DNA from: a bacterium
Lineage (GTDB): Bacteria; Electryoneota; Electryoneia; Electryoneales; Electryoneaceae
Reading direction: 5' to 3'
DNA: 10,598 bases
NCBI GenBank assembly: GCA_043801585.1
Contig: JAZDLX010000177.1
Coordinates: forward strand, 1 to 10,598
Shown here: in pieces, positions 1-10,598 of the stretch
How positions within the stretch are numbered: the first letter of the stretch is position 1
How the letters are laid out: every line of letters starts with the position of its first letter
Notes under the pieces: generated by a model
The model's input: only the letters and a program-made list of their open reading frames with translations
Databases searched by the model: none
What the model was told of the DNA's origin: nothing
Made by a program: the position numbers and the translations under genes

Positions 1-1182
1 GGACTGATTGCTCAATGAAAGGCTAATCCGCGGACTAAGTTCAGGATTAAAATCGGAGGGAGCATCGTATCGAAGTGCCAATGCTGCATCCCATGAAGAT
101 ATGAGACCGCCAAGCTGATCTCCGTAAGAAACCGTGGTGAATCCACTATTGGTCACCCGCTTCCGTTCACCGACATCGGTGCTGTTGATCCGGTCGTTGC
201 GGAATGAATACCCGTAACTTAAACGCATCTGGTCAGTCAGATTGCCAGACATTTTCAGGTCCGTTCCCGTCGCGTAATTCTTGTGGTCGCTGTGCACCTT
301 CGCCAGGCTGTAGTCATCATCGAAGCGGGTGCGGTAATTCAGAAAATAGCCGCCTGCATCAAGGTTAAATCCTTGGAAAAGTACAGTTTTTCGGTAGTTG
401 AGATTCAGTGTCTGGTTGTCAAGCAACAGTCTTGCCAACGGATTGATGTTGTCGATCATGCCCGGCGAACCACCGTTGGATGAGTACCAGGAATAGGAAC
501 TCTGCAGCGACTGTCCTGATGGCAGTTCTGAGCTGATCTTTGCGAAAACCGAGCTGGAATTCTGTGCATTGTTCACCATCTCGACTCGCCGGTCGTAGCG
601 ATCTGTGTACTCATAATTGCCTCCCCACAGATCTTTTCTGAATGAGATCATCGAGTTGATCTTGCCTTTTGTCAACGAATAATTCAGACTGTAGATCTGA
701 AGGTTGTACGAGCCATAGGTGGCTCTGGCCGAAGCTGACTGCTGAACCTTTACCGACTCGGATTCATTCTCTTTCGACGTGATGACAATGACTCCGCCGA
801 CTGCATCCGATCCGTATTCCGCGGAGCGTCCACCTCGCAGCAACTCGATGGATTTGATGTTTTCGATGGAGATGTTGCTGACGTTGACGCCGATACTGCC
901 CGGTGTATTGAGCTTCTGGCCATCCATGATGACCACGACCTTTGACGAACTCACGTCACGGAGCATTACTTCCCCGGTGCTGCTGATATAGACACCGGAA
1001 ATCAGCGCGAGAGCATCACCAACATTTTCACAATTGTATTTGAGGAAATCCGCTTCCTGAAGGATCACATGTGAGGTCTGTCGCTCTGCGCTGACAGCCG
1101 TCGTGTCCGATTGTGCGAATAGAGAGGATAGCGGCAGGATGATTGCAAGACTGACCGTCAGGGAAAGCATGGCCTTTCGCAT
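1..1182 (-). CDS. TonB-dependent outer-membrane receptor, BtuB/CirA-like (N-terminal 394 codons; runs off the left edge)
   Basis: Absent from the ORF track because it has no stop inside the window. Manually translated from ATG at 1182 (SD AAGGAG just upstream): signal peptide MRKAMLSLTVSLAIILPLSSLFA|Q, TonB-box-like DTTAVSAER (cf. BtuB DTLVVTANR), plug motif KVVVIMDGQKLN...ISIENIKSIELLRGGRSAEYGSDAVGGVIVITSK, then beta-strand-like sequence (TYGSYNLQIYSLNYS), ending in the same frame with ELSPRISLSL at the edge. Confidence 0.93.
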   Translation of the reverse strand, partial: MRKAMLSLTVSLAIILPLSSLFAQSDTTAVSAERQTSHVILQEADFLKYNCENVGDALALISGVYISSTGEVMLRDVSSSKVVVIMDGQKLNTPGSIGVNVSNISIENIKSIELLRGGRSAEYGSDAVGGVIVITSKENESESVKVQQSASARATYGSYNLQIYSLNYSLTKGKINSMISFRKDLWGGNYEYTDRYDRRVEMVNNAQNSSSVFAKISSELPSGQSLQSSYSWYSSNGGSPGMIDNINPLARLLLDNQTLNLNYRKTVLFQGFNLDAGGYFLNYRTRFDDDYSLAKVHSDHKNYATGTDLKMSGNLTDQMRLSYGYSFRNDRINSTDVGERKRVTNSGFTTVSYGDQLGGLISSWDAALALRYDAPSDFNPELSPRISLSLSNQS

Positions 1183-1303
1183 GGGATATCTCCTTTCGTC
1201 CACAACGAAGATCAAAGTGGACCGTCGCCCCCAGGTAACCTGGAAGGATGCTCGATCCGGCGAGCGAAACGGTTCTCGCCTGCCGGGAACTTTCCTGCAT
1301 ATT

Positions 1304-2338
1304 TCAGTTTTTCGCTAACTGCAACGCCTTGTCCGTCAACCGATCGGCGAGAACCGCCAAACCGAGATTATTCACTTCCTCGATCTTGTCCAGCATTGGC
1401 ATCGGAAAGGCTTCGATGCCTTTCATCGCCCCGGCGATGCTGCCCGCGATGGCGCCGATGGTGTCCGCATCGCCACCCATGTTCGCCGCGGCACGCACAA
1501 CTTCCAGCGGGTCGCCGTCGTAATAGGAAATCAGCGCAATCGCCACCGGAGCCGTCTCCGTCATCGCCACACCGGCTCCAATCAAATCGTAGAGATCCGT
1601 CCACACCAACGACTCATCCCTGCCTGATTTCGCGAGATCAATCGCCCATTCCGCACGTCGCCGAATCGATGCCGAAGCCCAGGGATTGCCGTGCCGGGAG
1701 CCTTTGTCGACGCCATACAGAAAGGCATCGATCACCTCTTTGGTGGATGCTCCCGTCATCCCGGCAGCAATCGCGCAGGCGATCGCCGACGCGCCGGAAA
1801 TGGCGACGCTTGTGTTGTGCGTGGGCTTGCAGACTTCGGCGGCGTCACGGACCACGGCGTCCAGATCTCCCGGGTGGATGATGCCGACGGGGGAGATGCG
1901 CATCGCCGCGCCGTTGGTGTCGCCCATCCAGCCGGAGTCCTCGATCGATCCACCGTTGCGAATGAACTCCAGGGCGCGCCGGGTGCTCGGGCCCAGGTAC
2001 TGGGTGTCGAATCCTCCCACCTCTTCCGCCCAGTGGATCAGCGACCATGCGAGCTTTTCGGCATCGGCGACGCCGTCCGCCAGCAGGTATTCGGCGATCA
2101 GAATCGTCTGCTGAGTGTCATCGGTGATTGACCCCGCCGGCATCCCGTTATGGATCAGATGTCCAGGGGGTGCGGGGAGGAAGTCGTTCACGCCATTGGG
2201 ATAGGTTTCTTTCACCTGCTGCGGAGTGAACAGCGATGTCGGCATGCCCATCGCATCACCGAAGGCTACCCCGGCCAGGCATCCGTAGGCTCGGCGGAAA
2301 AGATCTTCGCGATCAAAGCTGGATGTACTCGTGGTCAT
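1304..2338 (-). CDS. ADP-ribosylglycohydrolase family protein (DraG/ARH superfamily, E. coli YegU-like subgroup)
   Basis: 344 aa with family motifs GDAMGMP, metal-binding TDDT, LGPST, TNGAAMRISP, PTH and ANMGGDADTIGAIAG. Motif order resembles E. coli YegU as recalled. Start overlaps the upstream gene's stop (ATGA, 2335-2338). Confidence 0.93.
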   Translation of the reverse strand: MTTSTSSFDREDLFRRAYGCLAGVAFGDAMGMPTSLFTPQQVKETYPNGVNDFLPAPPGHLIHNGMPAGSITDDTQQTILIAEYLLADGVADAEKLAWSLIHWAEEVGGFDTQYLGPSTRRALEFIRNGGSIEDSGWMGDTNGAAMRISPVGIIHPGDLDAVVRDAAEVCKPTHNTSVAISGASAIACAIAAGMTGASTKEVIDAFLYGVDKGSRHGNPWASASIRRRAEWAIDLAKSGRDESLVWTDLYDLIGAGVAMTETAPVAIALISYYDGDPLEVVRAAANMGGDADTIGAIAGSIAGAMKGIEAFPMPMLDKIEEVNNLGLAVLADRLTDKALQLAKN

Positions 2339-3195
2339 GGTTCGATCATCTCCCCGACGACCGTGATCGGTTGTCTCACGGCGTTACGCAGCATCTCAAC
2401 CTTGTCCGGTTCCATCGAAACGATGATGCAGGTCGAGGGACCGCCTGTTTTTTTCAATGGTATTGTGTTGTTTTCCTTGATCTTCGCTTTCAGATTCGCC
2501 GTTCGCGCCATCTCCCCGATTTCATAGCCACTGCCATGACTGCCGACGGGGAGGATATCATGGATGAAATCGAACTGACTCAACGTGCGGACGCAGGCGA
2601 CATCGGCAATCTCGGGGTCATCGAGGCGGACTTCATCCTCGGGCGCGGATTTCGGGAAACCGACACAGACGACAGCGTCACCGGCCCGCGAATTTCCCGG
2701 CCGAAGGTCTTTTTCCTCCGCCAACCCGATGACCACCACGCCCATCCCGGTCTGCACCGTGGGCACGTTGTCCTCCGTGCTGCCGGTGACCACTTTCGAT
2801 CCTGCCAGCCCGGAGTGTTCCACCTCCTCGCGGACTCCTCGAATGATCTCCTCGCCGGTGGGGCTCATTTCGACACTCAGGGTGTCGACGACGAGAAGCG
2901 GGGTTGCCCCGGCGGCAACCATCTCCATCAACGGAACCCGTACGGCGAAACGCCCGAGGAGATAGCCGGGGGCGGGGAAACTGTCGTGCTCTTTCGGTCC
3001 AATCCCTCCGGTGGAATCGGAAGCGATGATGATGTTCAGGCCGTGAAACAGTTCGACGGCCAGGAGATCCCGTATGGTGTGGATTGGGAAGCCGGAAGCA
3101 GGATCCTGCTTATGCTGGTTAAAACGTTTGAAAAAATCGGCGAGCAGATCGGCATTCAACGCCGCTGTATCGCTCTCCGTGGATGGAGCTGTCAC
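2335..3195 (-). CDS. cblS: Alpha-ribazole kinase CblS-like protein (PurM/AIR-synthase-related ATP-binding fold)
   Basis: 286 aa with IRDL, ASDSTGGIGPKEHD, RVPLMEMVAAGA, DTLSVEMSPTGEEIIRG, TGSTEDNVPTVQTGMGVVVIG, PVGSHG and GGPST. These match the recalled Listeria/Geobacillus CblS pattern (RDL..CD.S.G.GEK.HD..RV.L.E....GA..EMEPTG..GSTEEN...QT..G). GTG start overlaps the gntR stop (GTGA, 3192-3195). Confidence 0.82.
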   Translation of the reverse strand: MTAPSTESDTAALNADLLADFFKRFNQHKQDPASGFPIHTIRDLLAVELFHGLNIIIASDSTGGIGPKEHDSFPAPGYLLGRFAVRVPLMEMVAAGATPLLVVDTLSVEMSPTGEEIIRGVREEVEHSGLAGSKVVTGSTEDNVPTVQTGMGVVVIGLAEEKDLRPGNSRAGDAVVCVGFPKSAPEDEVRLDDPEIADVACVRTLSQFDFIHDILPVGSHGSGYEIGEMARTANLKAKIKENNTIPLKKTGGPSTCIIVSMEPDKVEMLRNAVRQPITVVGEMIEP

Positions 3196-3959
3196 GGTTT
3201 CGCTCCGCTGTTGTGTACCAATATTTCAACCACGTTGGCCCGCAGGAAATGGAACCGGCACTGATCGATTGGCAGATAGGTTCTCACCACTTCCATCACC
3301 CTTCCCTCGGTGTCATGGGTGATGCGGTGGAGGTGGAAAAGTGGCGTGCCTTTCTCGACTTGCATCGGTTCCGATTCGTAGTCGGATGCCGGTTGGCATT
3401 CCAGGTACTCTTCCGCCTTCAGAGGAACGAGATCGAATTGTTTGCTCAGTACGGCAAAGAGGGATTCTTTCTCGAGGTCAAAATCGAACAGTGTGGGGCA
3501 AAGAACCTTGGGAATGAATGAAACCTGCAGGCTGAAGGGTTTGTCGTCAAGCAACCGCAACCGGCGCAGGACAAAGATCGGGTCGCGTTGCGCTATTTTC
3601 AGTACCTGCGCTGTGTCCAGGGATGCGGACATCTCTTTTTGTGCGAGGATGCGTGTTGTCAGCTTTCTGCCGCTTTTACTGATTTCGTCATAAAAACTGA
3701 AACTCTCGCCGATCCCAAGGAACATTTTCCTCGGGGATACAAACGTTCCCCGGCCCTGTTCGCGGAACAGAATGCCTTCGGACACCAGGTCAGCGATTGC
3801 CTGCTTGGCAGTGTTCCGGCTGACGCGGTAGTGGGTCGCGAGTTCATTCTCAGAAGGAACGCGTTCATCCGCGGCATATTTGCCTTTTGCGATACGTTCG
3901 CGAATTTGTTCCTTGATCTGATGATAGAGAGGAAGCACGCTGGTTCGGTCCAGACTCAT
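3192..3959 (-). CDS. GntR-family transcriptional regulator, HutC subfamily (wHTH + UTRA effector domain)
   Basis: N-terminal PLYHQIKEQIRERI...VPSENELATHYRVSRNTAKQAIADLVSEGILFREQGRGTFV. C-terminal UTRA pattern LRRLRLLDDKP...SFIP...SLFAVL...GTPLFHLHRITHDTEGRVME. Second ATG (3959) preferred over 3965 for correct spacing from SD AGGAG. Confidence 0.95.
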   Translation of the reverse strand: MSLDRTSVLPLYHQIKEQIRERIAKGKYAADERVPSENELATHYRVSRNTAKQAIADLVSEGILFREQGRGTFVSPRKMFLGIGESFSFYDEISKSGRKLTTRILAQKEMSASLDTAQVLKIAQRDPIFVLRRLRLLDDKPFSLQVSFIPKVLCPTLFDFDLEKESLFAVLSKQFDLVPLKAEEYLECQPASDYESEPMQVEKGTPLFHLHRITHDTEGRVMEVVRTYLPIDQCRFHFLRANVVEILVHNSGAKP

Positions 3960-4003
3960 CGTCATTCTCCTGGTTGATGTTTTCGTCGTGAAAAGTCATT
4001 GCC

Positions 4004-4975
4004 TCATTGATCGTCGATATCTTTCGGCACGATGTTCAATTCGAGTCGCTCCATGCTGCCCGGCGCGTGAATTGCTTCCGCGAAAAGCCTCGCAGCCACG
4101 GGAATCATCGGCCCTGCCTGTTTCGTCTTCGCTGAATCGATGAAACGCACCCTGCCGTTCTTCACGGCGTCGATGCGATCCGCTCCTTCACGGTGGGCGA
4201 TACGGTAGGGAGTGGTGGTGCCGTTGCCCGCCTGTGGACCTTCGTAATGGGGACCCTCTTCGCCTCCGGTTGCCCACCAGGGAATCAGGATCACCTCCGG
4301 GTTTTTCTCCACCACTTCTTCCCAGGTCACGCTCGGAGCGATTCCGGGGCGCTCCGAGAAAATCGGATCAGCCCCGACGATTCTCATCAATTCGGTGATG
4401 TAGGAGTTGGCCCCCGGAACGCACTTGTAGAAGTAGTTGATCTCGTAGTACACCGTCACCCGGGGAACATCTGCGTACTGTGTGGCGATTTCATCGAGCT
4501 GTTTCTTGATCCCATCAACCATTTTTTCCGCTTCAGCCTGATGCCCGATGAACTTTCCCAGTTCAAGGATGCTGTCGTAGCTCTCCTGGAGGCTTTTCTC
4601 GTCGACGTGGATGATCGTGATTCCCTGCCGTTTCAGCCATCCGTGGTAGCGCCGCTGCAACTGTGTGGATGTCAGCGCCAGATCGGGGTGCAGCGATTTC
4701 ACCAGGGCTGTGTCGATGTCAAGGAACCCGCCAACATCCGTCAGACGTCCCTCTTCGACGAGCCGGGGGATGCTGTCGGGGAAAATGCTGTAGCGGCTCA
4801 CCCCAACGAGTTGGTCAAGCCCTCCAAGTTCGACAACCGTATGGGTCCAGTTGGGGGCGAGTGAAACAATCCGGTGTTGGGTGGTTTCCTGTGCATAAAC
4901 GGCTGTCGAGAATGTGACAACGAGAACAAGCGCGATCGAAAGGGTACGTGTCCAGAAGGTGTCTGTGCGTTTCAT
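4004..4975 (-). CDS. Periplasmic substrate-binding protein, class III helical-backbone (BtuF / Fe-siderophore type)
   Basis: Start at ATG 4975 (SD GAGGA upstream) gives a signal peptide ending AVYA|QE with no lipobox. Motifs RIVSLAP, LVGVSRY, VGGF, LHPDL, GANSYITEL, VTWEEVVEKNPEVILI, AVKNGRV and GP are typical of BtuF/YvrC-like proteins. The ligand cannot be determined from sequence. Confidence 0.88.
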   Translation of the reverse strand: MKRTDTFWTRTLSIALVLVVTFSTAVYAQETTQHRIVSLAPNWTHTVVELGGLDQLVGVSRYSIFPDSIPRLVEEGRLTDVGGFLDIDTALVKSLHPDLALTSTQLQRRYHGWLKRQGITIIHVDEKSLQESYDSILELGKFIGHQAEAEKMVDGIKKQLDEIATQYADVPRVTVYYEINYFYKCVPGANSYITELMRIVGADPIFSERPGIAPSVTWEEVVEKNPEVILIPWWATGGEEGPHYEGPQAGNGTTTPYRIAHREGADRIDAVKNGRVRFIDSAKTKQAGPMIPVAARLFAEAIHAPGSMERLELNIVPKDIDDQ

Positions 4976-5052
4976 GACCGTGTTCCTCAGTTCTCGAAGC
5001 GGAGGGGGGGCTCCGAGGGTTAGCGTGAACACTGACGGGGATTGTGGTCAAC

Positions 5053-5082
5053 TTGATGGGACAACCCATCAATCCGACAACC
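5053..5082. promoter_or_regulatory. Candidate operator for the GntR/HutC regulator
   Basis: Perfect 8-bp inverted repeat TTGATGGG-acaa-CCCATCAA (5053-5072), plus minus-strand direct repeat GGTTGTC x2 (5082-5076 and 5066-5060), at or just downstream of the predicted start site. Confidence 0.45.
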
Positions 5083-5084
5083 AA

Positions 5085-5113
5085 AACCTACAGGCCGGAC
5101 GATTCGTTCGCAA
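5085..5113 (-). promoter_or_regulatory. Putative sigma70 promoter of the btuF-like operon
   Basis: Minus strand TTGCGA (5113-5108), 17-nt spacer, TAGGTT (5090-5085). Predicts a start near 5078, about 100 nt before the ATG. Confidence 0.45.
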
Positions 5114-5221
5114 GGGATACTGGAGTCATTTGAACGATTCAAAACGGTGAGTGCCTCGAGGAGGTGCGGGTGGATAGTTTCCTGCGAAAGAGGCATTGTA
5201 ACTAACTAATTAACAAAATAA

Positions 5222-5251
5222 TAAAAACAGGAATGGTAGCGGCCATTTCCC
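5222..5251 (-). terminator. Probable intrinsic terminator after the HDOD gene
   Basis: Minus strand GGAAATGG-ccgcta-CCATTCC (one bulge) followed by TGTTTTTATT, about 60 nt after the HDOD stop. Confidence 0.45.
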
Positions 5252-5310
5252 GTTTGACATGCCGGTCAGATGCTTCTTAAGGGAGTTGATGAACCATGCG
5301 GGTAAGCTCT

Positions 5311-6198
5311 CTACAACCATGAGAGCATCATCTTCGACCCGTTCATCGCCTGACGGATGTACCGTCCGTACCGGCTCCTCATTTCATCCAGGAGGTGGGG
5401 ACCTTCGCGGAAACGGAGATGGTTCGGGAGAGATGACTCAACCTGGTCCAGAGGAATCTCGAGGGGGAATGGATCGGGGGAGATGGTGGACGCCACCTGG
5501 ATCAATGCAGCATAGCTGGAAAGTCTGTTCGTGAGTGACGGCTGATGGTGGTAACGGACTACGTCCACAAGGTCCGGGTGCAGTCCCCACGATTCGAGCA
5601 ACAGGGCTCCAATCGCTGCGTGATCGAAGCCAAACAAATCCCGTTCCTGTTCGAGTGACCATCGGCCCGACTCATGATATGAGCGGATTGCCTTGCGAAC
5701 GAGTTGCGGCCTCAATGAATCGAGCGCAAACCACCCGATGTGGTGCAGCAATCCAGCGAGGTATGGATCGGGACCGGCGATGTGCCTCATCCGTTTGCGC
5801 AGGTGAAGCGCTTTCGCGAGGATTCCCGTTCCGACTGCGTGACGCCAGAGGACGCCGGTGCGGAGATTCAACTCATTCCAGGGAGCGAACGTGCGCAATT
5901 TTGGTTGCCGGGCGCAGAGGGAACGAATCGTCTCCTCGGGAATCAATACGAGGGCGTCTTCGATGGTCATCGGAGCGGGTGTGCCTGACGGGCGCTGGTG
6001 TCCCGCTTCCCTGAGGATCGTTGTGGCGAGTGGGGGATCGAGCAGAATCGCGCGTTTGATCTCGCGCATACTGCACCCGTTCCGCTGAACCATCGCTCGA
6101 TGGTAATCCGCGGCTTCCGGGAGTGTCGGCAATTCGCTGATCTGCTGAAGGTCGCGGCTCAGCTCTTCGACGTCTGCCACCTGAGGTTGAATTTCCAT
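5311..6198 (-). CDS. Stand-alone HDOD-domain signal transduction protein (divergent)
   Basis: ELPTLPEAA, ILLDPPLATTILR, TIEDALVLI, LWRHAVGTG, AGLLHHIG and ERDLFGFDHAAIGALLLESWGL..LVDVVRYHHQP are HDOD hallmarks. ATG 6198 preferred over GTG 6228, which lies at the predicted sigma28 start site. Confidence 0.9.
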   Translation of the reverse strand: MEIQPQVADVEELSRDLQQISELPTLPEAADYHRAMVQRNGCSMREIKRAILLDPPLATTILREAGHQRPSGTPAPMTIEDALVLIPEETIRSLCARQPKLRTFAPWNELNLRTGVLWRHAVGTGILAKALHLRKRMRHIAGPDPYLAGLLHHIGWFALDSLRPQLVRKAIRSYHESGRWSLEQERDLFGFDHAAIGALLLESWGLHPDLVDVVRYHHQPSLTNRLSSYAALIQVASTISPDPFPLEIPLDQVESSLPNHLRFREGPHLLDEMRSRYGRYIRQAMNGSKMMLSWL

Positions 6199-6233
6199 TG
6201 TGCCTTGTGCAAACGGAGTGTTCCCCACTACTA

Positions 6234-6260
6234 CTATCGGCGAATTTGCCGAATTCTCAA
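6234..6260 (-). promoter_or_regulatory. Possible sigma28 (FliA) promoter for the HDOD gene
   Basis: Minus strand GCCGATAG (6241-6234) matches 7/8 of the GCCGATAA -10 consensus. TTGAGAAT, 11 nt upstream, matches only 4/8 of TAAAGTTT. Confidence 0.4.
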
Positions 6261-6357
6261 CTCCAGAAATTTTCCAAAGGTGGAGAGGACAGGTTTCCAG
6301 GCGAGTATGCTCTGATCGGGCATGTGCAGGCGGGACGTCGAGCCAGGCAGTGACGGT

Positions 6358-6385
6358 AAAAGAGCCCGGATGCCATCGGACTCTT
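6358..6385 (-). terminator. Intrinsic terminator downstream of cheV
   Basis: Minus strand AAGAGTCCG-atggcatc-CGGGCTCTT followed by TT (stem includes one G-U pair, short U run), about 40 nt after the cheV stop. Confidence 0.55.
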
Positions 6386-6423
6386 CTTTAAGTGCTTAAT
6401 TATAAATCAAATGAATCTTCTGT

Positions 6424-7380
6424 TCAGGACACTCCAAAGATGAGACAATCGAGAACAGTCACAATATCCTCAACCTGAGGTTTGCTCAACACCTTGTCCA
6501 CACCGACTTCACGGCATTTCCTCCTCATTTGGTCACTGATCAGCGAGGAAACAACAATGACCGGAATGTTTTTCTGGTTCATGTCTTTTTTAAGTTTACG
6601 GCATAGTGTCAGACCGTCCATCTGGGGCATTTCGATATCTGTCAGCACGGCGTGAAGCCGATCGGTGAGTGGGATGTTCTCCTTGTCCGTGGCAAGTCTC
6701 AGTGAGTGAATGTGTGTCAGCGCAGTTTTCCCGTTGTCAGCCTCGATAAGATTTGTATAACCATGTTTTTTCAGTTCGCGAACGACCGATCCCCGAACAA
6801 ATGAGGAATCCTCCGCATAGAGTACAGTCACTCTGGATCGCATCTCGCGGAGATCTTCCCGTTGCAATGCGTTGGACGACTCCCGGAAGGCGACATTGGG
6901 CAGGATTTCCGCTGTCAACTGTTCGATGTCGAGGATCAGAATGTCGGTGCCCTCTACGGTAAGAGTGCCGGTGATATGAGCCGAGTTGTTGCGCAAAAAG
7001 GAACTGATGGGTTGCAGATCGTCCCATGAAAAACGGTGGAAGCGTTCGGCGCCGTTGATCAGAAATCCCAGAATCGTTCGATTGAATTCAGCGACAAGGA
7101 TAATCGGGTTCTGGTCCGAGGAGATGAATTCGCGGTAGAGGGCATGTTTCAGGTCAATCAGCGGAATTGACCGATCACGAAACAGAAAGGTTCCAAGCAG
7201 GGACGGGTGGCTTGAGGGCAGATGCGTGATATCCGTGTTGCCCGATTGGATGATCTGTTGCACTTTAGCGACATTGATGCCAAAGCTCTGCTCGCCTACG
7301 ATGATCTCCGCGATCTCCATCTCGTTGGTGCCCGAGTCGAGGAGTCTGCTTTGCGGGCGTTTTGCGGTTCGATCACCCAT
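6424..7380 (-). CDS. cheV: Chemotaxis coupling protein CheV (CheW domain + receiver domain)
   Basis: 318 aa. CheV-type N-terminus LLDSGTNEMEI...FGINVAKVQQII, CheW core (GTFLFRDRSIPLIDL, ILVAEFNR, ILILDIE), receiver domain YAEDSSFVR...VLTDIEMPQMDGLTL...IPVIVVSSL...LSKP with intact Asp, Ser and Lys. SD AAGGGGA. Confidence 0.95.
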   Translation of the reverse strand: MGDRTAKRPQSRLLDSGTNEMEIAEIIVGEQSFGINVAKVQQIIQSGNTDITHLPSSHPSLLGTFLFRDRSIPLIDLKHALYREFISSDQNPIILVAEFNRTILGFLINGAERFHRFSWDDLQPISSFLRNNSAHITGTLTVEGTDILILDIEQLTAEILPNVAFRESSNALQREDLREMRSRVTVLYAEDSSFVRGSVVRELKKHGYTNLIEADNGKTALTHIHSLRLATDKENIPLTDRLHAVLTDIEMPQMDGLTLCRKLKKDMNQKNIPVIVVSSLISDQMRRKCREVGVDKVLSKPQVEDIVTVLDCLIFGVS

Positions 7381-7581
7381 GGATTCCCCTTGATCCGAGT
7401 TTTGGGGATTTTAGAAATTCAGTCCATGCTACATCGTTGAACTGCCGCAATGCAAGCGAGTTCTCTCGCTTTCGGATTCGTTCCCGGGAGGCGGCAGGCA
7501 AACTGGATCGTGAATTCATTTCCTGTCGAAGAATCGTCATTGATACTACTTTAATATTGGATAAACGGAGAGGAAAAATCT

Positions 7582-8598
7582 ATGCGTAAGATCTCATTGC
7601 TTGCCTTGGTTCTCCTCGCGGGAGTACCCTTCCCGTCCCTTTACGCCGGACCCGCCGGAACGTCAACTCCCGGGATCGCCACGGATCCGATTGCCCACAC
7701 CTTCTCCATCGTTGCCATCGATCACGAGCGCGGAGAAATGGGAGTTGCGGTGCAATCCCACTGGTTCTCCGTCGGTCCGGTCGTGCCGTGGGCTCAACCG
7801 GGGATCGGCGTGATCGCCACTCAATCTCTCGTGAACATCTCCTACGGTCCCCGAGGTCTCGCGATGCTCAAAGAGGGAAAAGCCGCCACGGATGTTGTCA
7901 AGGAACTGACGACTCCTGACACGGGACGTGATTACCGTCAACTCGCCGTCATCGACGCGCACGGCGGAGTGGCCACCTGGACCGGAACTCTGTGCATCCC
8001 CGAAGCGGGGCATGTCACCGGAGATAACTATTCCGTTCAGGCGAACATGATGCTCAAAGGAACGGTATGGCCGGCGATGGCGAAGGCCTTCGAGGAGGCG
8101 GAGGGGCCGTTGGCGGAGAGAATGCTCGCTGCTCTTGACGCCGCCCAGGCGGAGGGAGGTGACATTCGCGGAAGGCAGTCGGCGGCGATGATCGTGGTCA
8201 GAACAGTCGCGTCCGAGGAACCCTGGAATGACCGGCTCGTCGATCTTCGCGTTGACGACTCGGAGCACCCTCTTCTCGAGCTGCGCCGTCTTCTGACCAT
8301 TCACCGCGCTTACGAACACATGAATGCCGGAGATCTTGCGGTGGAAAAGGGTGATGTTGAAACTGCTCTGATCGAATATTCCACTGCCGACTCGATGAAC
8401 TCGGACAACCCGGAAATGCCCTTCTGGCATGCGGTTTCTCTCGCGAACGTGGGCAGGGTGGAGGATTCACTGCCGATCTTCGCTCGGGTCTTTCGTGAAG
8501 GCGGGGACCATTGGCGGGAGTTGGCGCGACGGTTGCCGGAGGTGAACCTGCTCGAGGTCAGCGACCGGGATCTGAAGAAAATTCTGTCGATCAGGTAG
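7582..8598 (+). CDS. Secreted DUF1028-family Ntn-hydrolase with a C-terminal TPR-like helical domain
   Basis: Signal peptide MRKISLLALVLLAGVPFPSLYA. DUF1028 motifs HTFSIVAID..GEMGVAVQS, GVIATQS, RQLAVID, TWTG, QANMM, GGDIRGRQSAA and DLRVDD..PL.EL.RL. TPR-like tail (AYEHMNAGD..NPEMPFWHAVSLANVGRVEDS). SD GGAGAGG. Confidence 0.9.
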   Translation: MRKISLLALVLLAGVPFPSLYAGPAGTSTPGIATDPIAHTFSIVAIDHERGEMGVAVQSHWFSVGPVVPWAQPGIGVIATQSLVNISYGPRGLAMLKEGKAATDVVKELTTPDTGRDYRQLAVIDAHGGVATWTGTLCIPEAGHVTGDNYSVQANMMLKGTVWPAMAKAFEEAEGPLAERMLAALDAAQAEGGDIRGRQSAAMIVVRTVASEEPWNDRLVDLRVDDSEHPLLELRRLLTIHRAYEHMNAGDLAVEKGDVETALIEYSTADSMNSDNPEMPFWHAVSLANVGRVEDSLPIFARVFREGGDHWRELARRLPEVNLLEVSDRDLKKILSIR

Positions 8599-8711
8599 CA
8601 GGTGTCAGGGAGTGTGGCCGACAACCAGCCATCCCGATAAAAGTATATTTGAATCCACGCGTGGAGTGTACGTCGGCTGACTCCATTTTTCTCATACAGA
8701 TCGGAACGATT

Positions 8712-10598
8712 GTGGCTGGGGAAAGCGGAAAACACCGTTTTACTGCGAATGCCGGAAACACCTTTATTGTGGCGTTTATCCTGATATTCTGCGCAGCGGG
8801 CACGGTGGCCGGGGGGATGGTCGCCGTGACCGATTCCGTCACGAATGCGGCAGATGACAGCACCCGGTTGATGAATTGGGAGCGAACCGGAAACAAACTC
8901 GTCACCGCAAGACGTCCCCGTGTGGGTCTCGTGCTCAGCGGGGGAGGCGCCAAAAGCCTCGCGCACATCGGAGTGCTGAAGGTGATCGAAGAGGCCGGCC
9001 TTCATATCGACATCGTCACTGGTGTCAGCATGGGAGCGGTTGTCGGCGGGTTTTACGCGATCAGCTATTCACCGCAAAAGCTGGAGGAGATCGCACTTTC
9101 GACGGATTGGTACGCGCTGCTTGACGACACCCCTACGCGACGCGACCTCTCCATGGAACAGAAACTCTACGATGAGATTTACAACCTTTCATTGCCATTC
9201 AGGAATTGGAAAATCTCCCTGCCCAGCGGTGTCATTCAGGGATTTCGCATCAATAAAATGCTCTCCGGGTACACGTGGCCGGTGCAGAACGTCACGGACT
9301 TCACCGATTTTCCCCGCCCCTTTGCCGCTGTGGCAACCGATCTTGAAACGGGGGATGCGGTCGTCCTTCGTGAGGGGTCGCTTGCCGAGGCGATTCGTGC
9401 GAGCATGTCGATCCCCAGCGTTTTCGCACCGATGCGGATCGGGGACAAATTGCTGATCGATGGTTACGTTGCCCGCAATATCCCAGCCCAGGACGCGAAG
9501 GAGTTGGGGGCGGACATCCTGATCGGTGTCGATGTCGGAACGCCTCCCCGGTCCGCCGAACAGTTCGAAAGCATGGTCGATATCATCAACCAGACCATGG
9601 ATTATCAGGGACGCGAGGCGAACACACGTCAGCGTGCAATGCTCGATATTCTGATCCAACCTGATGTCGCGGACGTCGGACTCCTCGATTTCGAGCATGT
9701 CGAAGAGATCATCCGCAAAGGCGAGGAGGCTGCACGGGCGCATTTCACGGAATTGAAAGCCCTTGCGGACAGTCTGAACGCCATCTCCCCACCGCCGAGA
9801 TTGTATTACCCGATTAGCGCCGACAGCATCTACGTCGCAGAGTTAAAAATTGATGGTCTTGAGCGAACCTCAAAATCGGTTATTTTCGGTGCGTTCAACG
9901 TCCCCATCCCCGGGTGGATGAGCCGCGAGGAGCTGGAGGGCGCCGTTGACCGGATCTATGGAACCCGGTATTACAAGAACGTCACCTACCACCTTCTGCC
10001 GCAGCCGGGCGGAACCTCCTTGTACATCAGCGTCAGTGAACAAAAATCAGCAATTCTTCGTTTCGGTTTCCATTACGATACGAATCGAAAAGCGGCAGTG
10101 CGGTTCAATCTGACACGGTTGAACTGGCTGCTGCCCGGCTCTTTTGCCAGTGCGGATGTGAAGCTCGGTAATACCACGGTGTACGATCTCACGTATTTCG
10201 CTGCGGCGGGACGTCAGGCCAGGGTTGGAGTGCGGCTGAATTTCAACATGGAACAGTCCGACCTGGTGTTCACGGATCAGGCGGGCACGACGAATCCTCT
10301 CAACGAAAATATTCAACAGGCGAATCTGTTTACAGGTTCACTCTATTCGACACGGTTCGGCGCGGGCGGCGGAATCACGCTGATCGGAAGCAGGATCAGG
10401 ATCGGTCAACTGGAACGGGACGATGATGCTGTTGTGTCGTTGTACGGTCTGATCTGGTATGACACGCTTGACCGGCTCAACTTTGGCACCCAGGGATCGA
10501 TGGTCCAGCTTTTGTTTACCCAATCCGTCCACGACATCTATAATCGTGGAGCTTTCTACCTCAAGCGGGAAGGATTCTTCGACCTGAATGTGCCTTTG
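8712..10598 (+). CDS. Patatin-like phospholipase fused to POTRA and Omp85-like beta-barrel (PlpD / type Vd autotransporter-like); 3' end beyond window
   Basis: Absent from the ORF track because it has no stop inside the window. Frame with codons at 8913 reads RPRVGLVLSGGGAKSLAHIGVLKVIEE, nucleophile elbow GVSMG (9021-9035), AIRASMSIP, LIDGYVARNIP (Asp at 9459), POTRA-like IYVAELKIDGLERT...AVDRIYGTRYYKNVTY...SVSEQ, then beta strands and YDTLDRLNF. Hydrophobic N-terminal stretch FIVAFILIFCAAG. Start codon uncertain (GTG 8712 chosen). Confidence 0.88.
   Translation, partial: MAGESGKHRFTANAGNTFIVAFILIFCAAGTVAGGMVAVTDSVTNAADDSTRLMNWERTGNKLVTARRPRVGLVLSGGGAKSLAHIGVLKVIEEAGLHIDIVTGVSMGAVVGGFYAISYSPQKLEEIALSTDWYALLDDTPTRRDLSMEQKLYDEIYNLSLPFRNWKISLPSGVIQGFRINKMLSGYTWPVQNVTDFTDFPRPFAAVATDLETGDAVVLREGSLAEAIRASMSIPSVFAPMRIGDKLLIDGYVARNIPAQDAKELGADILIGVDVGTPPRSAEQFESMVDIINQTMDYQGREANTRQRAMLDILIQPDVADVGLLDFEHVEEIIRKGEEAARAHFTELKALADSLNAISPPPRLYYPISADSIYVAELKIDGLERTSKSVIFGAFNVPIPGWMSREELEGAVDRIYGTRYYKNVTYHLLPQPGGTSLYISVSEQKSAILRFGFHYDTNRKAAVRFNLTRLNWLLPGSFASADVKLGNTTVYDLTYFAAAGRQARVGVRLNFNMEQSDLVFTDQAGTTNPLNENIQQANLFTGSLYSTRFGAGGGITLIGSRIRIGQLERDDDAVVSLYGLIWYDTLDRLNFGTQGSMVQLLFTQSVHDIYNRGAFYLKREGFFDLNVPL

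Follow-up and report, generated by a model that had tools for sequence, protein, structure and literature searches.

What does a homolog of an alpha-ribazole kinase do in an operon that joins it to an ADP-ribosylglycohydrolase (ARH)-fold enzyme and to vitamin B12-type transporters, in a bacterium in whose genome we find neither CobS nor CobT? The question is raised by the window, i.e., the whole stretch of 10,598 nucleotides (nt) analyzed here, which is the entire contig C38 (JAZDLX010000177.1) of the Electryoneaceae genome G000 (assembly GCA_043801585.1; 3.28 Mb, 92% complete). A preliminary description of this DNA had noted five co-oriented genes for a substrate-binding protein (SBP), a GntR regulator, the kinase, the ARH, and a TonB receptor. 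Reading from sequence, we lean modestly toward an inducible operon that would scavenge cobamides and catabolize their alpha-riboside tail to base and ribose-5-phosphate.

The kinase clade and its ARH partner

By sequence, the kinase belongs to the CblS family and lies nearer to it than to SelD, PurM, ThiL, or HypE. It is 29% identical over 234 amino acids (E 2e-29) to the product of a Listeria monocytogenes gene between pduV and cobU-cobS-cobC, labeled hypothetical in RefSeq, which we take to be cblS. It also matches genes adjoining cobS and an energy-coupling factor (ECF) S-component gene in Lactiplantibacillus and Cytobacillus. In the ESM atlas, clusters named alpha-ribazole kinase or CblS score 0.97 and SelD-related ones 0.86, while matches to ThiL and HypE are marginal only. 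Named close homologs come from Ignavibacteria, Marinimicrobia, Calditrichia, Bacteroidota, and Bacillota.

A quick tree bears out this assignment, which the preliminary description had already made, and adds a subdivision. It has 107 rows (left of 131 sequences after filters on length and on 90% identity, with two outgroups from the host's own genome), and the window kinase sits in a clade of 70 rows with a Shimodaira–Hasegawa-like approximate likelihood-ratio test (SH-aLRT) support of 94. An ARH gene lies within 5 kb in 57/70 clade rows versus 0/35 rows outside the clade; for cobS or cobU neighbors the figures are 0/70 versus 13/35. Twenty-nine positions are conserved in at least 90% of both clade and cob-linked kinases, including the PurM-type ATP/metal residues R42, D43, D60, E91, E141, and N143, and the ARH-linked clade differs from the other kinases at nine columns. 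The enzyme is predicted to be an alpha-riboside 5'-kinase. Elsewhere in the family, loci L137 and L146 (genomes G362 and G164) hold the kinase within an open reading frame (ORF) of about 745 amino acids that also matches an ABC ATPase and stands immediately before cobS and cobC.

The ARH is 34% identical over 312 amino acids to Escherichia coli YegU, DraG and ARH3 being much more distant. The likeness to the yeg genes that had been proposed thus goes further than shared logic where the ARH is concerned, but not for the GntR regulator, which is only 24% identical to YegW. Among the best 150 YegU-type profile matches, 21 long ones were domain-scanned; 19 are PfkB-ARH fusions (P0149, P0167, P0176, and 16 more; one with a sub-threshold PfkB score), and the other two are a GntR-ARH and a double ARH. 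Kinase-then-ARH therefore recurs as a module. In L024 (positions 5611-7522) and L028, a divergent YegU-type ARH/PfkB pair stands beside the kinase-ARH operon.

In a 93-row ARH tree, 33 of the 35 kinase-linked ARHs fall into one clade (SH 97), with L087 and L136 outside it. Active-site residues were mapped by sequence alignment. The binuclear metal site (TDD and DxDT: T72, D73, D74, D290, D292, and T293) is kept in 35/35 kinase-linked ARHs, among which His63 and Glu261 are invariant as well. The position of the catalytic glutamate (Glu25 of hARH1, Glu33 of LchARH3), on the other hand, is Ser35 here; it is Ser in 32/35 and Glu in 0/35 of these proteins, whereas DraG, MJ1187, and YegU have Glu. 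An excerpt of PMC6309922 describes ARH1 and ARH3 as hydrolyzing alpha-linked ADP-ribose only and the conserved glutamate as crucial to their full activity, and a passage in PMC9503650 takes genomic context as a hint at a broader substrate range for the fold. Ser for Glu would fit an altered leaving group and also a weak enzyme. We predict that the ARH is an alpha-riboside-5'-phosphate glycosidase.

Neighborhoods, host capacity, and corrinoid uptake

A metagenome scan confirmed 201 loci, of which the best 80 were surveyed, ranked by likeness to the window kinase (near-duplicates included, many contigs short). Per 80 loci we counted ARH 65 times, GntR 59, TonB receptor 43, CblT-like S-component 38, ABC ATPase 38, SBP 37, AhcY 31, EcfT 30, calcineurin-like esterase 24, and beta-propeller protein 21; rarer are a PHP-like esterase (15), a deaminase (15), NupC (13), and EamA (10). 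Wherever the sequence runs on for 3.5 kb or more past the kinase (52/52 loci), the ARH is part of the operon, so the arrangement is not chance; the kinase-ARH adjacency seen in the window is conserved. The idea that a TonB route replaces CblT does not hold, since the CblT-like S-component co-occurs with TonB receptors in many loci and the host has NupC. Among 39 long loci, 21 have CblT only, 11 NupC only, one both, and six neither; 15 have one esterase type, 13 the other, none both, and 11 neither. CblT and NupC thus look like alternatives to each other, and so do the esterase types, as far as can be judged from flanks of 10 kb that cut the operon.

The Bacillota versions read GntR-CblT-kinase-EcfAA'-EcfT-ARH and have no receptors, and 4/5 of these genomes retain a cobalamin riboswitch. 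Basal clade members adjoin BMP-type nucleoside ABC transporters, PfkB kinases, nucleoside hydrolases (two in L136), and, in L141, a PF04227 protein, presumably a pseudouridine-5'-phosphate glycosidase. The clade kinases of L141 (G215:C46) and L136 (G204:C1) stand in general nucleoside-catabolism clusters that include an IF-2B-family isomerase, and G215 carries two kinase paralogs. As for regulation, a 16-bp palindrome was found de novo upstream of the first gene in 40 de-duplicated loci (mean score 16.5 versus 8.3 shuffled). Some loci, three without gntR among them, have a poor copy or none, yet L019, which also has no gntR, does carry it. We predict that it is the GntR operator.

The kinase is present in 3/79 genomes of the host phylum (G000, G030, and G039), two of them from one genus. 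Neither CobS nor CobT was found in these three genomes (92-96% complete), and CobU and CobC have no match in G000. Scavenging of alpha-ribazole for cobamide synthesis is therefore unlikely. All three carriers do have B12-binding domains and methylmalonyl-CoA mutase. For comparison, 301 genomes from the phylum of G080 were sampled, 72 of which have a CblS-family kinase: CobS occurs in 2/8 genomes with an ARH-clade kinase (chosen on score, then confirmed from tree and context; several are closely related, and their completeness is not stated) versus 61/64 with other CblS-family kinases. Two genomes in which CobS is present are G188 and G204. With CobS lacking, the phosphorylated kinase product would thus usually have no synthase to use it.

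The uptake genes may serve corrinoids. In a PDB profile search BtuB ranks top for receptor 1 and for receptor 2, though below the NCBIfam cut-offs, and nine vitamin B12-binding protein sequences come next after 4m7o for the SBP, the sole member of its family in G000; these rankings, together with the riboswitch-linked relatives of the receptor, agree with the earlier BtuB- and BtuF-like labels. Below its first match, the propeller encoded further along the operon matches YncE-family chains, including partner chains of the BtuB entries 8blw, 8bmx, and 8p97; this partner is presumably BtuG. In phylum genomes without the kinase, a same-strand cobalamin riboswitch precedes 40/50 receptor-1 profile matches at a distance of no more than 6 kb. 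Fifteen riboswitch regions were examined, and 14 have a related receptor and 13 a related propeller, the receptor-then-propeller order being common to these loci and the operon. The operon receptors are the only strong BtuB-like receptors in G000 and form their own clade, which may or may not nest among the riboswitch-linked receptors. A cobalamin riboswitch occurs in 70/79 phylum genomes, and all three carriers, where none was found, are among the nine without. As the carriers are riboswitch-less and relatives of their receptors and propeller are riboswitch-linked elsewhere in the phylum, the operon seems, in the carriers, to have taken the place of the phylum's usual locus for B12 uptake.

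No BtuC-type (FecCD) permease, i.e., BtuCD, was found in any of the 79 phylum genomes, and the riboswitch-linked type of ECF S-component, which we take to be CbrT, is present in 77/79, G000 included. In this diderm phylum, ECF is therefore the probable way for B12 through the inner membrane, and we dropped the missing BtuCD as a sign of periplasmic processing. At L183:883-3351 (G045:C12), a single reading frame joins an ECF S-component (an inner-membrane type) to the plug and barrel of a TonB receptor, an odd inner/outer-membrane fusion; similar open frames of 769-821 amino acids occur in G076, G077, and G078, and in G045, G076, and G077 the fusion comes immediately after a cobalamin riboswitch.

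Among the accessory enzymes, AhcY, a hydrolase of S-adenosylhomocysteine or S-inosylhomocysteine type, carries the signature HxExK in 32/34 copies, the housekeeping paralog having HxTxE; HxExK enzymes favor S-inosylhomocysteine, according to an excerpt of PMC10978960. Its top PDB match is a Pyrococcus enzyme. In L084 the kinase-ARH pair comes after a small DMT-family exporter, and an atlas search with the esterase returned generic metallophosphoesterases only. For the deaminase, which the host's operon lacks, the nearest PDB entries are 3ou8 and 3rys; their file name is adenosine deaminase, but they are presumably adenine deaminases.

Operon extent and flanking DNA

An ORF check and Pfam-family matches confirm the five minus-strand genes first described and the 4-bp overlaps at the gntR/kinase and kinase/arh junctions (Table 1). 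The SBP gene and gntR are 38 bp apart, arh and the receptor gene 121 bp. Ribosome-binding sites favor ATG 4975 over the longest-ORF start 5032 for the SBP and ATG 1182 over 1215 for receptor 1.

Table 1. Features of the operon in the window and its continuation on contig C148
Feature	Position	Strand	Remarks
Predicted GntR operator, 16-bp imperfect palindrome	5051..5066	-	76 nt upstream of likely SBP start; de novo motif
Class III periplasmic binding protein (SBP), BtuF-like	4004..4975	-	PF01497, E 9e-30; frame open to 5032
GntR/UTRA (HutC-type) transcription regulator	3192..3965	-	PF00392 + PF07702
CblS-family (PurM superfamily) kinase, ARH-linked clade	2335..3195	-	PF00586 AIRS N-terminal, E 9e-8
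YegU-type ADP-ribosylglycohydrolase-fold enzyme (ARH)	1304..2338	-	PF03747, E 1e-65
BtuB-like TonB-dependent receptor 1, truncated by contig end	1..1182	-	PF07715 plug; continues on G000:C148
C148 continuation, in order: TonB receptor 2, beta-propeller lipoprotein, AhcY, NupC, EamA, calcineurin-like phosphoesterase with lipobox			Six further genes

The operon does not end with these five genes: it comprises 11 in the host, and the window holds its front half. All 11 are contiguous and in unchanged order in G039, a relative of the same genus; G030 has five plus four of them, split over two contigs. The sequence beyond position 1, where a look for btuCD had been advised, yielded six more genes; btuCD was found nowhere in the 79 phylum genomes. 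Contig C148 opens with an 89%-identical copy of window positions 1-1067, the ends being identical, and this duplicate is an assembly bubble. The N-terminal two thirds of receptor 1 hence appear as two alleles (window 1-1067 and G000:C148:1-1067) with 40 non-synonymous and 64 synonymous codon differences, which we put down either to variation between strains or to an exchange of alleles of this surface receptor.

A sigma-70 promoter scan of positions 1100-5400 gave none, nor was a convincing minus-strand terminator seen there, and an Rfam scan of the window gave just three chance-level matches and no cobalamin riboswitch. Positions 5311-10598 encode an HDOD protein, a CheV-like CheW-receiver protein, a DUF1028 protein, and a patatin-POTRA-Omp85 (PlpD-like) protein; the first three are found next to the operon in L001 as well, and we saw no tie to it. 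Past the last operon gene on C148 (L006:10826-14473), an integrase, a primase-like ORF, and small genes resemble, by eye, an integrated element.

A proposed route, its rivals, and its significance

How could these parts work together? In the proposed scheme, the two BtuB-like receptors, the BtuG-like lipoprotein, and the BtuF-like SBP would capture corrinoids, the ligand being suggested by homology and by the riboswitch-linked relatives. A secreted phosphoesterase (calcineurin-like or PHP-like) might then act on the nucleotide loop, or on alpha-ribazole-3'-phosphate, to free the nucleoside, which is the weakest step, and a CblT-ECF transporter or NupC would import this nucleoside. The CblS-family kinase would yield the alpha-riboside-5'-phosphate, whose alpha-N-glycosidic bond the ARH would cut to give base and ribose-5-phosphate. 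More speculatively, purine bases could be deaminated and salvaged where a deaminase is present, and unusable bases could leave via the EamA/DMT protein. GntR would repress from the conserved palindrome, and the phosphorylated riboside would probably release it. In the host, intact B12 probably enters through the same receptors as well.

All parts are of known families, and they combine in the manner of known kinase-glycosidase operons. CblT/CblS salvage in Listeria and other Bacillota shares the kinase family and, in the 38 loci counted above, a CblT-like ECF S-component by the kinase. It differs from the present operon in that the kinases here form a separate clade with ARH in place of CobU/CobS/CobC, in hosts that mostly have no CobS, with a GntR operator instead of a riboswitch and in diderms that possess outer-membrane receptors. 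E. coli yegTUV, with its repressor YegW (GgaR), likewise combines a nucleoside-type transporter, a YegU-type ARH, a kinase, and a GntR/UTRA repressor. Here, however, a PurM-fold CblS kinase (PF00586) stands in for PfkB YegV and an ECF/CNT transporter for MFS YegT, YegU has the catalytic Glu, the regulator is distant, and a corrinoid-type uptake module is added. The functions of yegTUV are still open, as stated in an excerpt of PMC10819704.

In pseudouridine catabolism, PsuK phosphorylates the nucleoside, and PsuG, a nucleoside-5'-phosphate glycosidase, yields base and ribose-5-phosphate. The kinase-then-glycosidase order is alike, and L141 has a PF04227 gene two genes downstream of its clade kinase, but the folds are unrelated and the substrate is a C-glycoside. 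Bacteroidota-type BtuB-BtuG and the phylum's own riboswitch-linked locus resemble the operon in the BtuB-first receptors, the propeller matches, and the gene order. They differ in that the operon has a duplicated receptor, no riboswitch, and no BtuCD, and is set among catabolic-type enzymes. For nucleoside release, finally, CbiR remodeling in Akkermansia muciniphila offers a precedent, as its phosphodiesterase frees alpha-ribazole from adenosylcobalamin. According to part of PMC7733943, however, CbiR has an AP endonuclease 2 fold and stands beside cobamide synthesis genes; here a secreted calcineurin- or PHP-like esterase is found, and no CobS for rebuilding.

Several points weigh against tail catabolism. 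Critically speaking, cobamides are trace nutrients and their tail would thus bring little nutritional gain, while hosts with methylmalonyl-CoA mutase would lose by B12 destruction. The scheme leaves AhcY (31/80 loci) without a role. Every receptor scores well under the NCBIfam BtuB cut-offs, the SBP's top PDB match is 4m7o ("iron-binding protein"), ahead of the B12-binding sequences, and the propeller's is a surface-layer protein. The clade support of 94 comes from a quick tree with distant outgroups, and the genome counts are not independent, as close kin are included. With only 29% identity to the Listeria protein and with clade-specific residues, the kinase may have shifted its substrate; since the Glu crucial in ARH1 and ARH3 is missing, the ARH could be slow or inactive. 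Enzyme activities, binding, and expression are all predictions. The fuller claim of a dedicated cobamide-dismantling pathway, with BtuB/G/F-type capture, a secreted phosphoesterase, the CblS kinase plus an ARH-fold glycosidase of new specificity, and a GntR that senses an alpha-riboside phosphate replacing the B12 riboswitch, is one we consider less likely than not.

What else could the operon do? It might mainly supply B12, a protein sensor having replaced the riboswitch and tail nutrition being incidental; the kinase would then make alpha-ribazole-5'-phosphate as the GntR signal for the ARH to clear, or both enzymes would dispose of cobamides with unusable lower ligands. The place of all three carriers among the nine riboswitch-less genomes, the lack of other strong BtuB-like receptors in G000, an ECF S-component that could import intact B12 (77/79 genomes, G000 included), and the presence of methylmalonyl-CoA mutase all fit. 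Yet this would leave the receptor-free Bacillota versions, 4/5 of whose genomes keep the riboswitch, and the basal loci in plain nucleoside-catabolism clusters unaccounted for, and two of the three carriers are one genus; we regard B12 supply as the main role as rather unlikely. A substrate outside the cobamides is unlikely too: an alpha-nucleoside, ribosyl-adenosine from ADP-ribose polymers, or an S-adenosylhomocysteine-related compound, taken up by re-purposed B12-like transporters. An AhcY with the S-inosylhomocysteine-preferring HxExK, the deaminase and NupC pointing to purine nucleosides, the clade-specific changes in kinase and ARH, and the separate receptor clade speak for it. On the other side, the receptors, propeller, SBP, CblT-like S-component, and CblS-like kinase are each near characterized relatives that handle corrinoids or ribazole, and the carriers have lost the riboswitch-linked locus.

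Ordinary CblS-type salvage, in which alpha-ribazole-5'-phosphate would enter cobamide synthesis or remodeling with the ARH as an accessory, could appeal to the kinase family, to the CblT-like partner in 38/80 loci, and to CobS in G188 and G204. It is very improbable given that CobS and CobT are missing from three genomes of 92-96% completeness and that cob genes adjoin 0/70 clade members. We give even less credit to the view that the ARH strips ADP-ribose from proteins, as DraG or ARH3 would, and has nothing to do with the kinase product: the Pfam family is the same and the metal-binding motifs are intact, but the protein is far nearer YegU, its catalytic Glu is replaced, the kinase-linked ARHs form one supported clade (33 rows), and a transferase was not seen among the recurring neighbors.

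Returning to cobamide-tail catabolism, our literature search, with most subscription papers outside its scope, found no description of this gene combination. CblS is described, in an excerpt of PMC6461909, as a biosynthetic salvage enzyme, mostly of Firmicutes. The finding here is a distinct CblS clade in hosts unable to assemble cobamides, tied to an alpha-anomer-specific hydrolase fold, and a true cobamide-dismantling pathway would be categorically new. If the reading is correct, uncultured Bacteroidota-related and Bacillota lineages would harbor a biological sink for the lower ligand of B12, perhaps for B12 itself, and corrinoid uptake would have shifted from riboswitch to protein control. 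It would further give an ARH-fold enzyme a small-molecule activity and provide a cheap, specific test for E. coli YegU/YegV; if dismantling holds, the widespread YegU-PfkB pairs would be alpha-riboside-5'-phosphate catabolic modules. It would also caution against taking every cblS as a mark of B12 salvage.

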